This document shows positions 7,169 through 18,842 of a stretch of DNA of 64,000 bases, one piece after another (the stretch's first letter is position 1; every line of letters begins with the position of its first letter). The stretch is taken from positions 130,556 to 194,555 of the forward strand of contig VGKT01000001.1 of NCBI GenBank assembly GCA_016866955.1, read 5' to 3'. A program made the translations under genes and the position numbers. The notes beneath the pieces were generated by a model. The model did no database searches. It had not been told where the DNA came from and saw only the letters and a program-made list of their open reading frames with translations. This DNA comes from Candidatus Pacearchaeota archaeon. GTDB lineage: Archaea; Nanobdellota; Nanobdellia; Pacearchaeales; GW2011-AR1.

Positions 7169-7447
7169 TTATTTTCCTATGATTGAAGCTAGAATTTCCT
7201 TGAGAGATTCTTTCTTTTTTTGTTGAGGGACTAACTCTGCGGAGTGTACTTTCTGAGTAATATGTGCAAGAAGGCAGGAGGAAGAGCAGAATTGTTTCAT
7301 AGTGGTCGTGTGCTTTCTTGTTTCTGAAAATTTGAACGAACAATCTTCCAATCGACACCAACCTTGATTGAAAGGATACTCGTCAATCTCTGTCGGTCTA
7401 CTTGTTGTCTGACAGTGATCGCATTGATAGATTTGTTGTGCTACCAT
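7169..7447 (-). CDS. hypothetical Cys-containing protein (possible zinc binding)
   Basis: 92 aa with CDHC...C...C and a later FCSSSC. A CTTTTATAGA box lies ~25 nt upstream of the ATG. Confidence 0.45.
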   Translation of the reverse strand: MVAQQIYQCDHCQTTSRPTEIDEYPFNQGWCRLEDCSFKFSETRKHTTTMKQFCSSSCLLAHITQKVHSAELVPQQKKKESLKEILASIIGK

Positions 7448-7501
7448 ATGAAAATAGTATCTATAAAAGTAGTTTTAAAGATTGAGGTGAGAAAGTTATG
7501 T

Positions 7502-7789
7502 TTATCTTGATACTGGTGGGGCTGGTTCTGGAGCTTCTACTACCGATATTAATCCTTCTACTGACCTGTGTATTGTACGTTGATCGATGAAACGAGCTTG
7601 ATCATTGCTCCCAAAATTAAGGACTTTCTCTTCTGAAAAAATCATGTAAACTGCATTATCAAATCTATAACTCTGGGTATTAACGTCAATACCGAGATAT
7701 GTTCCTTCTACTACGTGTGTACAAGGTCTTACGCTACCTTCAAAGACTGCTTTTATCCTTTTTCCTAGGCAAGCTTTAGGAATATCCAT
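7502..7789 (-). CDS. hypothetical protein, possibly Sm-like fold
   Basis: 95 aa. GKRIKAVFEGS...VEGTYLGIDVNTQSYRFDNAVYM loosely resembles an Sm1 motif. A GTTTTATATAG box lies ~25 nt upstream. Confidence 0.4.
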   Translation of the reverse strand: MDIPKACLGKRIKAVFEGSVRPCTHVVEGTYLGIDVNTQSYRFDNAVYMIFSEEKVLNFGSNDQARFIDQRTIHRSVEGLISVVEAPEPAPPVSR

Positions 7790-7881: not shown

Positions 7882-10800
7882 TTACATCTGAACTTTTTCT
7901 TATTTATGTGGCTATTAGTGGTCGCATGCTCACCCCTCGAAATTCTTGGGATTTATACACCGACTCTATCAACGTCATCTTCTTTGACGGCCTATGTTGT
8001 CTCGTCTTGCGGATGGCTTCGTTCTTAGATGCTTTCAGAACTTATCCGTACAATGCGTAGCTGCTCGGCCTGCTTCATAACAACCGATACACCAGAGGCA
8101 TCCGACTACCGTTCCTCTCGTACTAGATAGTCGTTCCACTCAGACAACTGCGCGCCTAATAGATATCATACAAACTGTCTCGCGTATATTCTCAACGATT
8201 ATGTATTTTCGTTGTATGGACTATACCTTCATCTTCACATTTTTTGGATAAGTATGTGAAGAGATCAGCGTCTTACCTGTTTACTCCAGGTCTAGATTTT
8301 CATTGGAACTGACGGTTCCTCATCTAAGTCTCTACGGGGTTATACCATTGCTGGTAAACTTCCCTCGGGGTTGCCATCGTATCATTTAGGATACAAAGGG
8401 TCCACCGACACAGAAATGCATCAACATTTCTGTCCTTCCACTCTTGCGAATAGAAAGTATGAGCTGATTATATTTTTCATGCAATCACTTGCATGCAACG
8501 CCGCTGTTTTTGATAGTTGCGATTCGATACGGGTTTTCGTTGCTTTCTTTAACGTTCTTAACCCAGCTAACGATCCCTTTTAATGCGTGAACTCCGACAC
8601 CCTTGGTTGCTTATGCACAACCAGGATAGGAAGAGCCGACAGCGATGTACCAAACCGCGCCGTCAATATGAACTATCGGGCGCGACAAGCCTGTTATCCT
8701 TGAGGTACCTTTTCTGTCACACACAGGTCCTAGTAAAAAACCATGTGGGGTCGCTAAGCCCGACTTTCGTCTCTGCACCCCGTGCTGTGGGGAGTACAGT
8801 CAGGTAAGCTTTTGCCTTCGCACTCAACATTAGATTTCCAACCTAACTGAGCTTACCATATAGGCCCTGCCGATATCTTTTCGGCAGGGTGCCGCCCCAG
8901 CCAAACTGCCCGCCTGTTGGTGTCCCCTCCCAGGTGAGCAACGGTAATCGATATGGGTAGTGTTACATTGATGCCGAAGCTCCTACCTACGCTATGCATA
9001 CCAATTAACGTTACAACAACAAGTTGCAGTAAAGGTCTACAAGGTCTCCGCTTCCCATTAGGCGTCATCGGCATTTTCACCGATCAGTGAGTTCAGAAGG
9101 TTCTGGTTGGGGACAGTGACCACCACGTTAAACCATTCATGCACGTCACCATTCAGATGACAAGGCATTACGCTACCTTAAGAGCCTCATAGATAGGCCC
9201 GCCGTTTGATGGGTCTTAGCTCCCTTGAAAAGGAGTTTGAAACACCACCACTGGGCAGGTCTCACCGATTATACTAGTCCTTTCGGATTTGCAATCGGCT
9301 ACGTTTTTGATAAACAGTCGGGCGGTCCTTGTTATTGCAATCTACAAATGCCTTTTACATATCAAAGACAATCATAGACACCCCTTCTACCGAAGCTACG
9401 GGGCCAAATATGCCGAGTTCCCTCAACCAGGTTACACCTTTCACGTCTTAGCCTTCTCAGCTAGAGCACCAGTGTTAGTTCTCGGTACAGCTAGACAACA
9501 CAAAGGTATTTTCTTTTCATGGGCTCTAGGAGTCCGTGGGTCGCCTGACATTCATTCACTGCGATCGTAGCATTACGCTCCCGCAATTTCAAATGGCACA
9601 TGCCTTTCGGCATGCCACATATCCCTAAGCAAAAAATACCATATAAGCGTTGTTAGTTCCGGAATATTAACCGGATGTCCATCGTCGTACGCAGTTAAGA
9701 TACAACTTAGGGGCTGACTAACCCTTGGTTAAACGATAGTGCCAAGGAAACCTTGCTCTTTCGACGCTTTCCGTTCTCAGGAAAATCAGATCTTACTTCC
9801 GCCAAGATTCTTATTTCGCGCCGCTCCATCGTGTCTCTCGACAGGACTTCTGCGCAGCGCGAACACCTGTATACCAGAATAGTCTTACGACTACCTCCGG
9901 AGTATCGGTGACATGCTTAGCCCCGTCCATCTTCGACGCCTCGAACCTCAATAGGTGAGCTGTTACGCTTTCTTTAAATGATGGCTGCTTCTAAGCCTAC
10001 ATCCCTAGTGTCTCAGGGTCAAGACAATCTTTGTTACACTTAGCATGCACTGAGGGACCTTAACTCCGGTCTCCCTTGTTCGGGTCTTCGAACGGTACCT
10101 TACGCACCGCCCGCCACTCCTCCAGTATGCAGCACGCACGTTCTGAGTTGGAAGAAAACCCCGTACCGAAACCGGTCTGCAGGTTTTATCCGTACTGTAC
10201 CACGCATGCGAAGCACTGGAAGGCTATACTGAGGCATATTTCTACAGGAACAAGCCATCGCCAGATTAGATTGGCTTTTCACCCCTACTCGCAAATCATC
10301 CAAGTGCATGTACACAACACTAGTTCGAACGTCCATTCTCCTTTCGAAGAACTTCCTTCTGCTCACGAGTAAATCATCTGGCTTCGTGTCTCCCGCCGGT
10401 GACTCACGCCCTTTCGGACTCGCTTTCGCTTCGACTTCATTCATTAATCTTGCCACGAGCGTGAACTCCTTGGCTCATTTTTCAACACGCACGTTACGAC
10501 AGATGTACTGCCGTAACCAGCTGTAACTACGAGATTTCAAGTCTTTTAACCCTCGATTAAGAGTACTTTTCAGCTTTCCCTTACGGTACTGTTCGCTATC
10601 GGACTTGGATCAATATTTAGGGTTGGCGATTACTCTCGCCGTATTCGGACCTCCAATCTAGGGGGCCCTACTCTTTTAGAGCTCGACATACCGATTTCGT
10701 TTACGAGACTTTCACTCTCTACAGTGCTTCATTCCAGAAGACTTCAACTCATCGGCGCAGTCTCCTGCTCCACCACATCTCTGCCGTCGTTTCCAACGGA

Positions 10801-11088
10801 GATTCAGTTTGCCCTCTTCCCTGTTCGCTCGCTGCTACTAAGGGAATCACGTTATGTTTTCTTTTCCTACCGGTACTAAGATGTTTCAATTCCCGGCGTG
10901 CGCATGCTTCTCAGCATGTATGCGTTTTCGCATTCGGAAATCCTGGGCTCAATGCCTGCATGCGGCTCCCCCAGGCTTATCGCAGCTTGCCGCGTCCTTC
11001 ATCGCAATCCAAACCAAGCTATCCTTCTCAATAGTATGTAGTAAGTGAGCTCTCTCATGATAGAGAGATCTCTGATTCTGATGTAACC
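7882..11088 (-). rRNA. rrl: 23S rRNA (interrupted by a 367-nt insertion; about 2,840 nt without it)
   Basis: Minus-strand landmarks include GGUUACAUCAG...GCGAUGAAGGACGCGG at the 5' end, GGAUAACAGGCU and GAGCUGGGUUAAGAACGU. The sarcin-ricin loop AGUACGAGAGGAACGG lies at 8109-8124 and CUGAAAGCAUCUAAG at 8024-8038. The 5'/3' end helix pairs 7882-7890 with 11080-11088. Ends are accurate to about 10 nt. Confidence 0.9.
8185..8551 (-). other. insertion in 23S helix 93 after U2593 (E. coli numbering): candidate ORF-less group I-like intron
   Basis: The flanks AGAACGU | CGCGAGACAGUUUGU rejoin to the conserved H93 sequence. The insert contains GUAGAGACUUAGA and AAGGUAUAGUCC, which resemble group I R and S elements, plus several hairpins. 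Confidence 0.6.
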
Positions 11089-11485: not shown

Positions 11486-11565
11486 GTTGTTGTGTGATAA
11501 CGAATCTACTCGAAGAGTAGATCCGGAAGTTTCGATTCTGAGAAGTCTGTTTCTCTTGCGAGAAA

Positions 11566-11636
11566 TGGACCCACCGAGAATCGAACTCGGAGCCCCTGAT
11601 TGCAAATCAGGTGTTTTACCATTAGACTATGGGCCC
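11566..11636 (-). tRNA. tRNA-Ala (UGC) in the 16S-23S spacer
   Basis: GGGCCCAUAGUCUAAUGGUAAAACACCUGAUUUGCAAUCAGGGGCUCCGAGUUCGAUUCUCGGUGGGUCCA. The acceptor stem has the G3:U70 alanine identity pair, the anticodon loop is UUUGCAA, and the T arm is CCGAG-UUCGAUU-CUCGG. The D stem has one mismatch. Confidence 0.9.
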
Positions 11637-11801: not shown

Positions 11802-13248
<1,447 letters not shown>

Positions 13249-13545: not shown

Positions 13546-14112
13546 TTAACTCTTGTAGGAAAGGTTACGATACTTCATATCGACTGATTTTCCATCGTGC
13601 AGTAATTCTTTAATGCGCGCTTGTCCCGACGAGTCAATTTTGACTCTTACTTGTAGATTTGAGGTATCAAATTGCGCACCCTTCTCAAAGAAATATTGCT
13701 CAATGCCGTAGTCGATACTAGCTTGATTGCCTGCAACTCGTTTAACAATCCCTTTGATAAACAAACCAGATGTTGGTTTTTCACTCGATACTTTCGTCAA
13801 ACGAGCAATTCCTTCTGCATCATCTTTAAGTGATACATATACTTTGTCTCCTTCTTTTAAAGTAATGGGGCTCGCCCTATCAGCAGTTGAACTTTTTGGA
13901 GGACTAAATTCTATAACTGGGGGAATTGTTCCAATTTCATATCGAATTATAATATACTGTCCGCGAAGTGGATCAAACGGGTCAATGGGTTGTGTTGCGA
14001 GTGTTGCTTCTGCACCTGTAAGCAAAGGTAAACCAAGGTACAAACCAAACACGGCAAGTATTCCAAGCAATATTCCTAATCCTATGATGAGCTTTGTATA
14101 TGCTGGATTCAT
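13546..14112 (-). CDS. GDYXXLXY-domain membrane-anchored protein
   Basis: 188 aa with an N-terminal TM helix. DPFDPLRGQYIIIRYEI contains the name-giving G-[DQ]-Y-x-x-[LI]-x-Y motif. It overlaps the stop of the upstream DUF2157-like gene by 1 nt. Confidence 0.6.
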   Translation of the reverse strand: MNPAYTKLIIGLGILLGILAVFGLYLGLPLLTGAEATLATQPIDPFDPLRGQYIIIRYEIGTIPPVIEFSPPKSSTADRASPITLKEGDKVYVSLKDDAEGIARLTKVSSEKPTSGLFIKGIVKRVAGNQASIDYGIEQYFFEKGAQFDTSNLQVRVKIDSSGQARIKELLHDGKSVDMKYRNLSYKS

Positions 14113-15572
14113 TATTTCTTTCCTGTTTGTGCAAGAAGGGATTTACGCCACTTTTCCAAGAGCCATCCACCGAGTAAGAGAATAACCCCTCCCAATATGA
14201 ATATAAGAGACATGCCCAGATATCCCCTTAGATCCATAATGAATCCAATATATCTTGTAATGATATCCAGTGCGAAGAAACTGATGCCAAGATTTACCAA
14301 TGCTGGATTATTGAAACGTGTTCCATGTCCTAACGTGAGTAAAATCATACCGAGAAGCACGAGGTTGCCTACGATCCAGACAAACCACCCTGTTCCTGAA
14401 AGTTCTCTTCCCCCCCAATAATCGGGAGACCAACGACATTCATTACGTATGGTACAAGATGTTCGATCATTATCATACTTTTCGCATTGATTCACTCGTT
14501 GGATAGGTTGGCTTACTGATGTTGAGGAACAATAGCCATTCGTATCGCTCGTTGCGTCTTCCGCTCCGCCATATCCTTGCCACGTACACGTAAGTTTTGT
14601 GGGTGCGGTGGTGCACTCACTTTTGTTATGGAAGATATAACAAGAAAGTTCTTGACATTGAGTATCTTTCATCGTGCAATGATCTGCGGCTGCAGCACAT
14701 TGTGCGGTAGTGAATTCATAACAGCTTTTTTCACTACATTGTCCTTGTGTTCCGGTGAGAAGAGCAGTCATGAGAATAAATACTCCTAATGCTACGAAAA
14801 TACCCAACGCGCTGAGTAATTCTCGATTATCAATTGCGTTCTTTTTTGTTGTTCCGATAACTCCTGCTGCCACCGTTCCCAACATGCCAAGAGAAAGGAT
14901 GATAAGAAGCACCCCTTGACCTGTTCCCAAGGTAAACCCAAATGCCCAAAGCATTGGTTGAAGTGTTTGAAAGCTCAGAATATATGAAAATGTAAGCAGA
15001 TAGGCAAACGTCCACCACTTGTAGATGTTTGCAAACGCATGATCGCGAGTGCGATGGACTAATGAAAGTCCATAGAGTAATCCCCCCATGAGAAGATAGA
15101 GCAAAGCTAGATACCCTGGAGAAAATTGGAAGTTTGTTGAGTCTTGAAAAGCGATAAACTGATTGAACAACCATGTGCCAACTTCAGTTAAGCCTAAGAT
15201 CAGACTTGCAGGTGAAGCAAACATATATGCGGCAACGAGGACTCCGACGAAAGAAATCAATTGTAAATTCGCCATTCCTTGAATCGATGCATCTGTGGCA
15301 AAAATTTGTGCAATCAAAAAGACGCTTAAAGTGAACAATGCACTTCCTAGCAGAATAATGGCTCCACCAACTTTTGGATACTCATGTTCACGAAGTACCA
15401 CTCCCCCGACATAAGTGCCTGCGGTAAGTCCGACTAAAATGAAAATTTTAAGGAAGGAGGGAATAGCATGCCAGTTCCATGCAAGTAACCAGGCAATACC
15501 TATTGCAATGAGTACTGCTCCGATAACTGCAATTAATTGACTAAACGATGTTTCACCTCGTTGAGAACGCAT
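14112..15572 (-). CDS. DUF2157-like polytopic membrane protein with a Cys-rich extracytoplasmic insert
   Basis: 486 aa. The N-terminal IAWLLAWNWHAIPSFLKIF resembles the DUF2157 AANW motif, with about 10 TM segments. The ~110-aa insert CSEKSCYEFTTAQC...CTIRNECRW carries 16 Cys. Confidence 0.55.
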   Translation of the reverse strand: MRSQRGETSFSQLIAVIGAVLIAIGIAWLLAWNWHAIPSFLKIFILVGLTAGTYVGGVVLREHEYPKVGGAIILLGSALFTLSVFLIAQIFATDASIQGMANLQLISFVGVLVAAYMFASPASLILGLTEVGTWLFNQFIAFQDSTNFQFSPGYLALLYLLMGGLLYGLSLVHRTRDHAFANIYKWWTFAYLLTFSYILSFQTLQPMLWAFGFTLGTGQGVLLIILSLGMLGTVAAGVIGTTKKNAIDNRELLSALGIFVALGVFILMTALLTGTQGQCSEKSCYEFTTAQCAAAADHCTMKDTQCQELSCYIFHNKSECTTAPTKLTCTWQGYGGAEDATSDTNGYCSSTSVSQPIQRVNQCEKYDNDRTSCTIRNECRWSPDYWGGRELSGTGWFVWIVGNLVLLGMILLTLGHGTRFNNPALVNLGISFFALDIITRYIGFIMDLRGYLGMSLIFILGGVILLLGGWLLEKWRKSLLAQTGKK

Positions 15573-15603: not shown

Positions 15604-16392
15604 TTACTTCGGAGGAGTCAAGGATTCCCAGTTTTCAATAAAGTCTTGGATTTTTACTTCAGTTTTGATTTTATTTGTTTCACAATACTGTTTTGCCATT
15701 AAATAAAGCATCATACCAAGGGATTTCGCTGATTTGTTATTCCCTGGAAGAATGGTAGTAATACCTTGTGTGAAATTATTGGTATCACAAATAGAAAGAA
15801 CTGGAACGTGTACGCGACGTGCATCTTCTAATGCATTTTTGTCTAACCAAGGATCAGCGATAACGACAAGTTTTGTTTCAAAGAAATTTTCAAGATTTGT
15901 ATTAGTGAGAATACCTGCAGGATATTTTTTAGTGAAGATGCGAATACCGGTGATTTCTGCAAATTTCTGTGCTGCTTTCCATCCAGCTTCTCGTTTACAA
16001 ACAAAAATAATATCTTCCGCTTTAAATTGTGTAAAATATGCAAGAGCTTCACGGATTTTTTGGTCGAGCAAAGCAGTATTGAATACAGCTAATCCATCAG
16101 CACGACGGCGATAGACAAATTCACGCATGTCTGGAGTAATAACTCGTGTCCCTAAGTGAATAGATGCTTTGAGATAATCATCCATTGGCACAAGCGTATT
16201 TTCTGCAACTTCTTCTTCATCCTTTACTTTTTTCTTTAAATCTACATTTTTAACATCTTCAACTGCACTTTCAAGTTTCTTTGCTTTTGCCAATAATGTT
16301 GCAAGTTTTGCTTTCTTTTCTGCAGGAGTAAGGGTTGCTGGCGCTTGCTCAGTAGGAGTTTCAGGTGCATCAGTTTTCTTTGCTTTTGCCAT
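15604..16392 (-). CDS. rps2: ribosomal protein uS2 with ~70-aa K/A/E-rich N-terminal extension
   Basis: The core reads YLKASIHLGTRVITPDM...DGLAVFNTALL...VVIADPWLDKNALEDARRVHVPVLSICDTNN. I chose the ATG at 16392 (MAKAKK); the track start at 16503 is a TTG. Confidence 0.85.
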   Translation of the reverse strand: MAKAKKTDAPETPTEQAPATLTPAEKKAKLATLLAKAKKLESAVEDVKNVDLKKKVKDEEEVAENTLVPMDDYLKASIHLGTRVITPDMREFVYRRRADGLAVFNTALLDQKIREALAYFTQFKAEDIIFVCKREAGWKAAQKFAEITGIRIFTKKYPAGILTNTNLENFFETKLVVIADPWLDKNALEDARRVHVPVLSICDTNNFTQGITTILPGNNKSAKSLGMMLYLMAKQYCETNKIKTEVKIQDFIENWESLTPPK

Positions 16393-16487
16393 TGTAAATG
16401 TGTGTATAAGTAGCGCAGGAGTTGGTCCCAATTGTTGCAGTGGGTACCTGCTAATACGCAATCGTTCAGAAGGAGCGGTATTTAAAG

Positions 16488-18842
16488 TTATTGTATAGGG
16501 CAAGCCACTTCAATGGTCTTACCTTGTAAGGAAAATGCATCTGGAATGATTGTTTCACCTTCTTGTGTTCGTACTTCTTGTGTTGCTTCACTTCCTACTC
16601 GAATGGTAATTGGTACGTTGGAAAGTCTCTCTCCTGCTTCGTTTATGATTTTCACTAAGAATGGTTGTGCAACAACGCGAGGGGCTGCTGAAATATAGAC
16701 TTCTTGTAAAGTACCGAATGGACGAGCACTTGCATGTTCAATAATTCTGACATATCTTCCCACTACGGTTGTGGGGAAGGGAACTCCGACATAACGATCA
16801 CTTTCAAGATTATAGTTTTTAACAAGCGTGTCCCAGATTTTACCATCTGTTGAAACTTGTATTTCAATAAGTAAAGGCGTTTCTGCTTGTGCTACATACA
16901 TATCTAACCGATTCATACAAATTTCTTGATTGAAATCAGCAGTAATTATTTTTGGAAAAGGAGCATCGGGATTGCCATACCATCCTGATGAAAGATTGTT
17001 ATCTACGGCTAGCTGTGCAACGTATGGTCTTCGAGTATCAGAGGCATATATTTCAGGAGGGGAAACAAGCTGAAATTCTCCACAGGCTTGTTGTTGTATT
17101 TTTCGATTTGCTAATTTACTAAGCGTGTCACGTACTTGAACTACTTCAAATACCAATTCGGGAACAACTTCTCGTTCGAAAGTAGGAAGTGTAATAGTAC
17201 CGTTGGTCACGTTGGTCGAATTGGTGACATTTTTGGGACGTTTTTCTTCTTCTTTAGGAGGGGTGGGAGGGGCAGGATCTTCAGGAGCAGGATCTGCTTC
17301 TCCGCACACAAGCTTTGTATTTCTAATCATGTTTTTACCTCCATGAGTCCAGGCCCCCAAGGTAAGCTCTAAATCTTCCATACCCCACGTAGGTAATTGA
17401 TACTCTACTGCTTGTCCATTCACTTCCCAAAATAGTTCATCATAATTCCTTCTGAAATGAAACGGTACCCAGGTATTTGGAAGATAATTTGTTGTAACAT
17501 ACTCTTCCCCTGAAAGAAGAGGAAAACCATACGCAAATCCACCGTCTGCGAGTGTTGCCGAATTTTTCGAGACCGCTGTTTGAGGCGTATCTGATTCTTG
17601 ATTTGCAGTGCGCATTCTATACCCTTCTCCTCCCTTCACTAAGAATAAGAAAAGGTCCATGTAATTTGCCCCTTCAGGAACTGCCTTATATTCCCCAGTG
17701 AGTTCAAGCACTTTATCTGAACAAGAACAAGAAGGACTATAACTGTAGCCCCCGGGCACTTCGAATTCTTCATTTTGTGCTCCGGTTACAGAACATTCAG
17801 TTTGACTTAATTTTTTAAATGAGAGTTCAGGGTCTCCAAAAATCACATTCCCAGTAACACTCAGAAGATGCGAAAAGAACGAGAAACGAGGAGAAACAAA
17901 AGTAACGGTAGGAGTTACTGAGAGGGGAGTTTCAGTAAAAAAAGTTCCCGCAGTAGTAGGACAGGTAACCTGGACTTCAGTCATGGTTTCTTTGGGAGCA
18001 ACGAGCGTTGCTTTTCCATACTGATCTGTTTGATAGGGAGTTGCTTCACCATTAAACGTAAATGAAGCATAAGGAACAACACTTCCTGATGCCCCCGCAA
18101 CAACCGTGAGTTGCGTTAACTGTAAATCTGGAACTTCTGCCGTACTGATGACAATTTCGGATAATTGTCCATAGGCACGGGAAGTACTTGTTTGCGTAAG
18201 ACGAAGATAACGTGCATAAAGCGGATTGAATGAAATATCTTTCTTTTGCTCGGTAATGATTGTTGGAGGAAGTATTTCTTTCCAAACTGCACCGTCAATT
18301 GAAGCTTCAAGAGAAGCAGTAAGGGGAATGTCTTTGATGAAGAAGAAAAGTGTTGCAAAGTCCATGCATTTTCCTTCGCCATTATCAATAAGCAATTGAG
18401 GAGTGGTGCTGCCTGGTTGCCCGAACCAATGTGTCTCTCGTTGTTGATCAACTGCATTTGTTGCAGGATATGCTTGTAACGCAGGAGCTGAAGCGGTTAA
18501 TGGCGTTTCAAACCCATACTCTCCGCAATAGGAAAGAGCAATGGTATTTTGTAATTGGACCAGTTTTCGTTCTCCTTGAACGCATGCTCCTTCTGAACAG
18601 ATGCCTTCGCAGGTATGTTCTGTTGCAACCGGTTCAGTACCTTCGCACGTATACTCTTTGAGTAAAGTGGGCGAAAGACAGACATCAGCATAAAATTCTC
18701 TTCCAAGAGTGCCTGCTTGTTTTACTTCTAATGCTCCCCGTACGGTGGGAAGTCCTCTGGGTTCATTATCAGTACAAGAAAGAGAAGCTGAAACAAAGGG
18801 AATTACTAGAAACAACAATAGAAATAATACTCTTTTTAGCAT
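16488..18842 (-). CDS. secreted surface protein with two discoidin (F5/8 type C)-like domains
   Basis: 784 aa with signal peptide MLKRVLFLLLFLVIPFVSAS. The two domains are NAVDQQRETHWFG...LEASIDGAVWKEI...ARYLRLTQ and AVDNNLSSGWYG...IQVSTDGKIWDTL...GRYVRIIE. It also has a P-rich linker and N-x-T sites. Confidence 0.6.
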   Translation of the reverse strand: MLKRVLFLLLFLVIPFVSASLSCTDNEPRGLPTVRGALEVKQAGTLGREFYADVCLSPTLLKEYTCEGTEPVATEHTCEGICSEGACVQGERKLVQLQNTIALSYCGEYGFETPLTASAPALQAYPATNAVDQQRETHWFGQPGSTTPQLLIDNGEGKCMDFATLFFFIKDIPLTASLEASIDGAVWKEILPPTIITEQKKDISFNPLYARYLRLTQTSTSRAYGQLSEIVISTAEVPDLQLTQLTVVAGASGSVVPYASFTFNGEATPYQTDQYGKATLVAPKETMTEVQVTCPTTAGTFFTETPLSVTPTVTFVSPRFSFFSHLLSVTGNVIFGDPELSFKKLSQTECSVTGAQNEEFEVPGGYSYSPSCSCSDKVLELTGEYKAVPEGANYMDLFLFLVKGGEGYRMRTANQESDTPQTAVSKNSATLADGGFAYGFPLLSGEEYVTTNYLPNTWVPFHFRRNYDELFWEVNGQAVEYQLPTWGMEDLELTLGAWTHGGKNMIRNTKLVCGEADPAPEDPAPPTPPKEEEKRPKNVTNSTNVTNGTITLPTFEREVVPELVFEVVQVRDTLSKLANRKIQQQACGEFQLVSPPEIYASDTRRPYVAQLAVDNNLSSGWYGNPDAPFPKIITADFNQEICMNRLDMYVAQAETPLLIEIQVSTDGKIWDTLVKNYNLESDRYVGVPFPTTVVGRYVRIIEHASARPFGTLQEVYISAAPRVVAQPFLVKIINEAGERLSNVPITIRVGSEATQEVRTQEGETIIPDAFSLQGKTIEVACPIQ

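Follow-up and report, generated by a model that had tools for sequence, protein, structure and literature searches.

A subgroup-IA group I intron ending in adenosine in helix 93 of the 23S ribosomal RNA gene of a DPANN archaeon

The window analysed here is a stretch of 64,000 nucleotides (nt) from contig VGKT01000001.1 of a Candidatus Pacearchaeota assembly (GCA_016866955.1), and its subject is an insertion in the 23S ribosomal RNA (rRNA) gene, which encodes the RNA of the large ribosomal subunit (LSU). In an Rfam scan of the window, the archaeal LSU model RF02540 matched 7894-11050 on the minus strand (2068.7 bits, model positions 1-2987) and a small-subunit (SSU) rRNA was found at 11802-13247 (1301.9 bits), with a tRNA-Ala between the two. 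Both rRNA genes match their models end to end, and they form the single rRNA operon of the window. The host 23S rRNA is 77-90% identical to contigs labelled Nanoarchaeota or Woesearchaeota, and the host is therefore regarded as a DPANN archaeon of the Woese-, Pace- or 'Nanoarchaeota' kind. Two features frame the analysis:

7894-11050, minus strand: host gene, archaeal 23S (LSU) rRNA (RF02540, 2068.7 bits), with one group I match inside
8185-8551, minus strand: insertion of 367 nt, almost certainly a group I intron, after E. coli U2593 in helix 93 (placed by its junctions, RF00028 and a family profile)

The preliminary description of this DNA had reported a 367-nt insertion at 8185-8551, and the interruption of the 23S rRNA gene was confirmed to the base. 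On the minus strand the junctions read ...GGGUUAAGAACGU(8552) / U(8551)AAAGAAAGC...GAGAAUAUA(8185) / C(8184)GCGAGACAGUUUGU. In the RF02540 alignment a block of 371 nt stayed unaligned, and it falls exactly within the hairpin loop of GAACGU...GACAGUUU. In the E. coli rrlH gene, read directly, GAACGTCGTGAGACAGTTCGG begins at 23S position 2588, so that the insertion lies after U2593, in helix 93 (site L2593); a blastn search of the joined exons against E. coli genomes gave no match at E=1e-5. The boundaries cannot be slid in either direction, because the U at the end of the 5' exon differs from the terminal A of the intron, and the first intron base, U, differs from the C that opens the 3' exon. 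The predicted ligated exon junction is GGGUUAAGAACGU-CGCGAGACAGUUUGUAUGA. The longest sense-strand open reading frame (ORF) overlapping the insertion encodes 32 amino acids and the longest on either strand, an antisense one, 70, in agreement with the earlier statement that no sense-strand ORF of note is present; the intron thus holds no LAGLIDADG or other homing endonuclease gene.

The insertion is almost certainly an ORF-less group I intron of subgroup IA (IA3-type), located in a DPANN 23S rRNA beside the peptidyl-transferase centre. When a 551-nt stretch was scanned, the Rfam group I model RF00028 was aligned from end to end (model positions 1-253) with 29.3 bits (E=1.4e-5), and the R and S elements were matched; on the whole operon the score was 28.9 bits, and this was the one group I match in the host gene. 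The R- and S-like motifs pointed out previously (GUAGAGACUUAGA and AAGGUAUAGUCC) are present, and their GACU/AGUC segments form P7 with the usual bulged A.

Relatives were collected in two scans. The first covered one genome per species and looked for the 5' exon followed by any base except C (at least 120 loci, L001-L120); the second covered metagenomes with the query GGTATAGTCCATAC (120 further loci). Family counts below refer to the matches listed in these 240 loci, where ten relatives, or 11 copies with the window, were found. Comparison with the 23S rRNA genes of relatives, which had been proposed as a check, thus yielded ten contigs with the exon flank GGGUUAAGAACGU and a homologous insertion in the same place (L006, L052, L064, L069, L107, L135, L180, L201, L226 and L231). 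The host genes of five of them were scanned with Rfam, and all five were archaeal LSU rRNA genes. A leave-one-out profile, built from the ten relatives without the window copy, had its sole match in the 64-kb window at 8563-8173, over its full length (187 bits, E=1.1e-56). Over 315 shared intron columns, the 11 sequences are 60-82% identical to one another. In a profile comparison, bacterial introns at L2593 reached at best 79 bits, against at least 217 bits inside the archaeal clade.

A secondary structure of 59 pairs (P1, P10, P2, P3, P4, P5, P6, P7, P7.1a, P8, P9.0 and P9) was written by hand on the alignment of the 11 sequences (A1). Standard pairs occupy 96.5% of its cells, against 33-42% when the 3' partners were slid by 1-3 columns, and both sides have changed in 28 pairs, against 3-5 after sliding; none of 500 shuffles reached the observed values. 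The hand fold was derived from the same sequences and is somewhat favoured over its slid versions for that reason, but the margin is still very large. The minimum free energy (MFE) fold of the window intron alone (-105.9 kcal/mol, z = -6.3 against 100 shuffles) independently recovers P2, P3, P4-P6, P7.1, P7.2 and P8. The group-I-like core suggested earlier is accordingly seen in the Rfam match, in the family profile and in a covarying fold: it runs from P3 to P8, P3 and P7 forming the pseudoknot, and includes the bulged A of P7 and the G-C pair that binds guanosine (P3, P4, P6, P7 and P8 being assigned by hand). Between P7 and the 3' strand of P3 stand the marks of subgroup IA, namely P7.1 (UAGAU/AUCUA) enclosing GGAAC..GUUCC, followed by P7.2 (ACCUG..CAGGU). 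The elements of the intron, in the 5' to 3' order of the transcript, are as follows:

8552-8556, minus strand: 5' strand of P1, the last five exon nucleotides AACGU, with U8552 in a U.G wobble at the 5' splice site
8505-8551, minus strand: L1 insertion in the loop of P1, 47 nt, with the blocks GC(U)AACG (8538-8543) and AUCGCAACUAUCAAAAAC (8506-8523)
8502-8504, minus strand: 5' strand of P10, GCG, pairing with the first three nucleotides of the 3' exon
8497-8501, minus strand: internal guide sequence GCGUU, the 3' strand of P1 (GGCGUU invariant in 11/11)
8478-8495, minus strand: P2, a 7-base-pair (bp) stem with a GNRA loop, CAUGCAA-GUGA-UUGCAUG (both-side changes in 6/7 pairs, 100% paired)
8463-8468, minus strand: 5' strand of P3, AUCAGC (AUUGGC/GCCAAU in L135, two pairs changed on both sides)
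8458-8462, minus strand: J3/4, UCAUA
8409-8457, minus strand: insertion private to the window copy, 49 nt, two abutting hairpins (8434-8457 and 8410-8433) and one G, exactly between J3/4 and P4
8335-8408, minus strand: P4-P5-P6 domain, with P4 UCGGUG/CCCCGA, P5 CCUUUGUAUC/GAUACGAUGG and P6 GGG/CCC
8400-8402, minus strand: J4/5, GAC
8343-8356, minus strand: inner hairpin of P6, capped by GCAA
8327-8332, minus strand: 5' strand of P7, G-A(bulge)-GACU, with the G of the guanosine-binding G-C pair (invariant in 11/11)
8275-8326, minus strand: P7.1 (UAGAU/AUCUA), P7.1a and P7.2, the subgroup-IA marks
8305-8319, minus strand: P7.1a, GGAAC-CGUCA-GUUCC (both-side changes in all five pairs)
8275-8291, minus strand: P7.2
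8264-8269, minus strand: 3' strand of P3, GCUGAU
8232-8262, minus strand: P8 hairpin, UCUUCACAU...AUGUGAAGA (four pairs changed on both sides)
8223-8231, minus strand: J8/7, UGAAGGUAU
8218-8222, minus strand: 3' strand of P7, AGUCC
8215-8217, minus strand: 5' strand of P9.0, AUA, pairing with UAU at 8186-8188 (ACA/UGU in L069)
8193-8214, minus strand: P9 hairpin, CAACGA-AAAUACAUAA-UCGUUG (5/6 pairs changed on both sides, 100% paired)
8186-8188, minus strand: 3' strand of P9.0, UAU, directly before the last intron nucleotide
8185, minus strand: last intron nucleotide (omega), A in place of G (11/11 archaeal members)
8182-8184, minus strand: 3' strand of P10, CGC, the first three nucleotides of the 3' exon (E. 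coli 2594-2596)

The anatomy given in the preliminary description found its place in this fold. GCGUU, put forward there as a guide, is the conserved guide sequence of all 11 family members. The terminal U of the upstream exon is paired with the guide's G, and AACGU pairs with GCGUU with the U.G pair at the splice site, in all ten sequences that include the 5' exon. The four hairpins listed correspond to P7.1a (GGAAC..GUUCC), P7.2 (CCUG..CAGG), P8 (UCUUCACAU..AUGUGAAGA) and P9 (CAACGA..UCGUUG). P7, the guide, P9 and the terminal A had therefore been recognised, and the 49-nt private insertion and the L1 insertion had been missed. The L1 insertion measures about 45-330 nt in nine relatives (L006, L052, L064, L069, L107, L135, L201, L226 and L231), and across the clade it keeps the blocks (G)CUAAC(G), (U/G)ACCAAA and CGCAACUAUCAAAA. 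Tertiary partners for the blocks CUAAC, ACCAAA and CUAUC were sought by eye in the P7.1a loop, P4, L9 and the 3' tail, and each candidate fails in at least one family member; a CGC/GCG hairpin of the MFE fold shows no covariation. The motif CAACGAAAA occurs twice in the window intron, in the L1 block at 8538-8543 and in the 5' strand of P9 at 8209-8214. Because of this duplication the 3' strand of P9 is taken up by the L1 copy in the MFE fold, a pairing that has no counterpart in the relatives and is probably a coincidence.

Introns in archaeal rRNA are most commonly of the bulge-helix-bulge (BHB) type (PMC6125680), removed by the archaeal tRNA-splicing endonuclease and a ligase, and such introns can share a gene with group I introns (PMC6125680). 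The last four exon bases of the window, ACGU, do pair at three of four positions with AUAU near the end of the intron. When all bulge registers were tried at both junctions of ten members, however, at best 3-4 central pairs were obtained, with 0-1 of the 2 pairs of the outer helices, and none combined a 4-bp central helix with both outer helices. The window intron is found, like BHB introns, in an archaeal rRNA gene, but its junctions lack the BHB motif and it has a complete group I core with covariation. Removal as a BHB intron is thus already contradicted, and we give it next to no chance.

The intron belongs, by descent as judged from sequence similarity, to a clade of archaeal introns that has been known since 2018. 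Nawrocki, Jones and Eddy (NAR 2018) described 39 archaeal group I introns, ten of them of subgroup IA3 at LSU/2593 in Woese-, Pace- and Micrarchaeota (PMC6125680), and the view that group I introns are rare in archaea, adopted in the preliminary description, is out of date. The LSU/2593 entries are IA3.1 and IA3.4-IA3.12, several of which are ORF-less and 306-397 nt long (PMC6125680). The window intron lies at the same site (after position 2593 of an archaeal LSU rRNA gene), comes from the same host lineages and shares the P7 strands: GAGACUU/UAGUCC is letter-identical to IA3.4-8 and IA3.12. It differs from the published introns in its private 49-nt insertion. Since the omega A departs from the canonical definition of a group I intron, membership of the clade is argued from homology. 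No published entry is 367 nt long, and the window copy is therefore absent from the 2018 table; it is an addition to a published kind that is expected in such organisms. In the relative L135, a 278-nt intron is followed 656 nt on by a 318-nt L2593 intron, which reproduces the lengths and spacing of IB4.21 and IA3.12 on MNVZ01000017.1. As L135 matches IA3.12 in length and context, a terminal A follows from the published boundaries too.

The terminal A is real and is shared by the clade. The last inserted nucleotide had been noted before as A rather than the canonical omega-G, and A8185 cannot be slid; all 11 archaeal copies end in ...UAUA (...UGUA in L069), directly before CG(C/U)GAGACAG. A comparison set was made of insertions of 200-1000 nt at L2593 in genes whose exon flank differs from that of the archaeal family; almost all of them come from contigs with a bacterial label. 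Among the matches listed, 85 of these 87 insertions end in G; of the two others, one is a one-base boundary ambiguity and the second has a 3' flank unfit for helix 93 and is apparently a chance match outside rRNA. Second insertions in the L1923/L1931 region of the same archaeal 23S rRNA genes are G-ended in all four cases (L135 1709-1986, L226 2469-2846, L006 1019-2002 and L069 ~7447-7769); that of L135 passes the RF00028 gathering score (56 bits) and is a confirmed group I intron. The window 23S rRNA gene has no insertion in this region. The text of the 2018 clade paper, figures aside, does not mention the terminal A (PMC6125680), and no other mention of it was found in the literature searched.

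Other positions of the 3' splice site were considered and rejected. The helix 93 loop would lose 2 or 4 nt if splicing took place after G8183 or G8181, and 6-8 surplus nt would remain if it took place after G8191 or G8193, where the Rfam alignment stops. The distance from the exon to the nearest G varies from 2 to 9 nt among the relatives, and in intron-free DPANN genes helix 93 has its normal length. A one-base shift of the boundary to gain a terminal G is impossible, as the flanking bases differ.

The position of the 3' splice site after the A, with A at omega, follows from double changes in P9.0 and P10. In P9.0, the AUA that follows P7 pairs with the UAU before the terminal A, and the middle pair is U-A in ten sequences and C-G in L069. 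Bacterial relatives have P9.0 (AUG/CAU, GUG/CAC or AUA/UAU) in the same register, directly before their terminal G. In P10, the varying base is located three positions before the G of the guide sequence, and its column pair is G-C in six sequences and A-U in five, tracking C or U at exon position 2596 without exception and with none unpaired. The guanosine-binding G-C pair of P7 and the J6/7 and J8/7 flanks are the same as in the nearest G-ended bacterial introns. Contiguous P10 pairs number 3-6 in the archaeal clade versus 0-2 in 20 bacterial introns whose guide sequence is unambiguous, a comparison that is only suggestive, the guide-finding heuristic having missed most bacterial introns.

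We consider it probable that the RNA self-splices by the usual route as an IA3-type LSU/2593 intron, with A at omega. The guide GCGUU would pair with the exon end AACGU across the 47-nt L1 to form P1, in which the U.G wobble marks the 5' splice site; free guanosine would bind the intact P7 G-C pair and attack this site. The 3' splice site would be brought in by the 3-bp P9.0 (AUA/UAU) and the G+C-rich 3-bp P10 (GCG/CGC), and not by base-specific binding of omega. The 5' exon would then attack after the terminal A, giving GAACGU-CGCGAG and restoring helix 93. As for the omega base, we infer that, the terminal nucleotide being A and not G, the second step must tolerate adenosine in or beside the guanosine pocket, or P9.0 and P10, or else a host factor, must play a larger part in it. 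With slightly greater conviction than doubt, we extend this proposal to the clade: the DPANN LSU/2593 introns would be a natural, long-lived ribozyme clade that ligates exons with an omega adenosine while the guanosine-specific pocket is unaltered, the loss being compensated by a fixed 3-bp P9.0 and a strong P10.

Several points weigh against this reading of the window intron. Its 49 extra nucleotides stand between J3/4 and P4, where group I introns have no standard element known to us, and the first base of J4/5 is G in the window (8402) and A in the other ten copies. The argument for splicing is drawn from conservation alone, and the double changes in P10 and P9.0 represent a single evolutionary event each, since the A-U group is one cluster, so that they count as two events and not as sixteen sequences. 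Been and Perrotta reportedly found in 1991 that the Tetrahymena intron could use a terminal A only once its G-C binding pair had been altered to A-U; in the archaeal clade the binding pair is still G-C. Published accounts call the terminal G universally conserved and consider the second step to depend on it (PMC8146996; PMC6545197). Finally, the RF00028 score of 29.3 bits lies below the gathering score of 50. Of the Rfam checks proposed earlier, the one with RF02540 thus placed the insertion in the helix 93 loop and the one with RF00028 fell short of the curated threshold. The absence of a significant RF00028 hit had been offered as a refutation, but it is a poor test: the archaeal L2593 relatives that were scanned (five loci) were likewise below the threshold, and RF00028 was reported to have found no archaeal introns, subtype models being needed (PMC6125680).

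A ribozyme that performs only half of the reaction would explain some of the same observations. Guanosine would cut the 5' site and RNA ligation would fail. The 3' site would then be cut by other means, leaving a 23S rRNA that functions in two pieces held together by helix 93, or host enzymes would complete the cutting and joining; the intron would thus be on its way to depending on protein. The version with host enzymes would be rarer and more radical, an intermediate still in existence between self-splicing introns and the archaeal introns that need proteins. The intact guanosine pocket and P1 together with an omega A fit this scheme, as does a proposal by Tocchini-Valentini and colleagues, as related in PMC6125680, that archaeal group I introns decayed into protein-spliced introns. 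Against it, P10 tracks the exon polymorphism and P9.0 is compensated, so that the RNA itself appears to align the 3' splice site beside the 5' exon; moreover, the junctions have no BHB motif for the archaeal splicing endonuclease, and no candidate host factor was identified. We regard the half reaction, in both versions taken together, as unlikely.

Among the family copies, only that of the window carries the 49-nt insertion between J3/4 and P4, which is absent from all ten relatives. Its two hairpins were misread by Rfam as P2 and part of P3: in the Rfam alignment the private hairpins stand as P2 and UUCUGUG is paired with ACGCUGAU, non-canonical pairs being flagged, and this assignment was given up for AUCAGC/GCUGAU, a pairing that the family conserves and in which changes are compensated. 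The insertion was also considered as a repeat or mobile element, an origin that was rejected as no second copy was found in the window or in the 240 loci. It is taken here as a tolerated peripheral addition. As the hairpins abut without a linker, its entry and exit could sit side by side in a coaxial stack, which would leave the core undisturbed. Private changes at columns invariant in the other copies number 4 in the window intron and 9 in each of L107 and L226, and the window copy is therefore not regarded as decaying.

These data also bear on whether the gene is alive. A decaying rRNA operon, or an assembly artefact, could carry intron debris, and both the private insertion and the length of the 23S exons (2790 nt in total versus 2987 model positions, ~200 nt below the archaeal consensus length) could be read in that way. 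However, the LSU (2068.7 bits) and SSU (1301.9 bits) genes match their models end to end with a tRNA-Ala between them, the intron has no excess of private substitutions, and the same architecture occurs on ten independent contigs. A dead gene is consequently very unlikely.

The 23S rRNA of Simkania negevensis contains an intron at what is presumably site L1931, a different position from that of the window. This group I intron lies in domain IV-V of its prokaryotic host rRNA, may be kept in the mature molecule and was reported as unspliced (Everett et al., 1999, as cited in PMC11270868). This precedent invites the idea that the window insertion is a former group I intron that has lost splicing and remains, like an expansion segment, part of the mature 23S rRNA: the omega A should cripple exon ligation, 49 nt have entered the core junction J3/4-P4, and a G has replaced the conserved A of J4/5. 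Yet P1, P10, P9.0 and the catalytic core have been kept, with both-side changes, across A-ended copies that are only 60-82% identical, which would be unexpected if the splice-site pairings were useless. In addition, the helix 93 loop adjoins A2602 of the peptidyl-transferase centre, where on general knowledge 367 extra nt are judged hard to accommodate, and the window holds a single rRNA operon. Retention therefore seems improbable to us, and self-splicing with A at omega is preferred.

Bacterial introns at L2593 (Candidate Phyla Radiation (CPR)/Patescibacteria, Actinomycetota and others; PMC11270868) have the same site, the same J6/7-P7 and J8/7-P7 sequences and the same P9.0 register as the archaeal clade; in the nearest one (L032) these sequences read CCCGUAGAGACUU and GGUAUAGUCCAUAC. 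They differ in ending in G (85/87), in having the guide 9-11 nt from the 5' splice site, against at least 50 nt in the archaeal clade, in a GUAA-type P9 loop and in a contiguous P10 of 0-2 bp. Insertions of group I type at L2593 are very common in CPR/Patescibacteria and are also found in metagenome-assembled genomes (MAGs) of Acidimicrobiia and other Actinomycetota (~75 among the 120 matches listed). Five matches were obtained when viral contigs were scanned with AATCAGCTCATATCGG, and these were chance matches in unrelated DNA.

The Cr.LSU intron of the Chlamydomonas reinhardtii chloroplast is located at the same position L2593 and is of the same subgroup IA3. It encodes a LAGLIDADG endonuclease, whereas the window intron has no ORF. 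The I-CreI target CAAAACGTCGTGAGACAGTTTGG matches the joined exons of the window at 19 of 23 bases (compared by eye); the target string quoted in the preliminary description does occur in an I-CreI paper (PMC1904291). Some relatives have intron ORFs of 50-72 amino acids (intron positions 84-293 in L052, 48-239 and 416-568 in L180, and 248-466 in L006), in the P1 and P6 loops and in two cases with a hydrophobic stretch; none had a Pfam match above the curated cut-offs or resembled a LAGLIDADG endonuclease, and these small ORFs may be spurious in an A+T-rich RNA.

A parallel for the 3' end is the hexacoral mitochondrial ND5-717 intron, whose omega base is A and whose exons are nevertheless found ligated in vivo (PMC8146996; PMC6545197). 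Its authors suggest that the A suppresses hydrolysis at the 3' site and circularisation (PMC8146996; PMC6545197). ND5-717 is unrelated by site and host: it interrupts a mitochondrial protein-coding gene, has a giant P8 insertion with genes and undergoes back-splicing in some taxa.

Further observations concern the closest relative and the surroundings of the operon. Among the matches listed, the closest relative of the window is L107 (JACRKE010000028.1, 1-1183), which is filed under a 'Candidatus Vogelbacteria' (CPR) MAG, yet has an archaeal LSU rRNA (RF02540, 679 bits) 89-90% identical to the window 23S rRNA; the contig was probably misbinned. Beside the rRNA operon, at 16488-18842 and 13546-15572 on the minus strand, are genes for a 784-amino-acid protein with F5/8 type C (discoidin) domains, a DUF2157 membrane protein and a GDYXXLXY protein, and a ribosomal protein S2 gene is located at 15604-16503. 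A sub-threshold Rfam match to 'Plastid-ycf2' at 11565-11636 on the plus strand (33 bits, gathering score 65.7) is antisense to the tRNA-Ala and is almost certainly spurious.

A group I intron at L2593 in a DPANN 23S rRNA is in itself ordinary, of a kind known since 2018, and its unusual part is the 3' end. The clade is missed by Rfam's single group I model at the curated threshold. If its members do ligate exons with an omega adenosine, they would be, in the literature searched, the second omega-A lineage, following hexacoral ND5-717, and the first from a prokaryote as well as from an rRNA gene. If the introns are spliced, they offer a natural experiment on how far P9.0 and P10 can replace the omega base in 3' splice-site recognition; if they are not, the ribosomes of these archaea would have to tolerate ~300-700 extra nt in helix 93, or work with a broken 23S rRNA.

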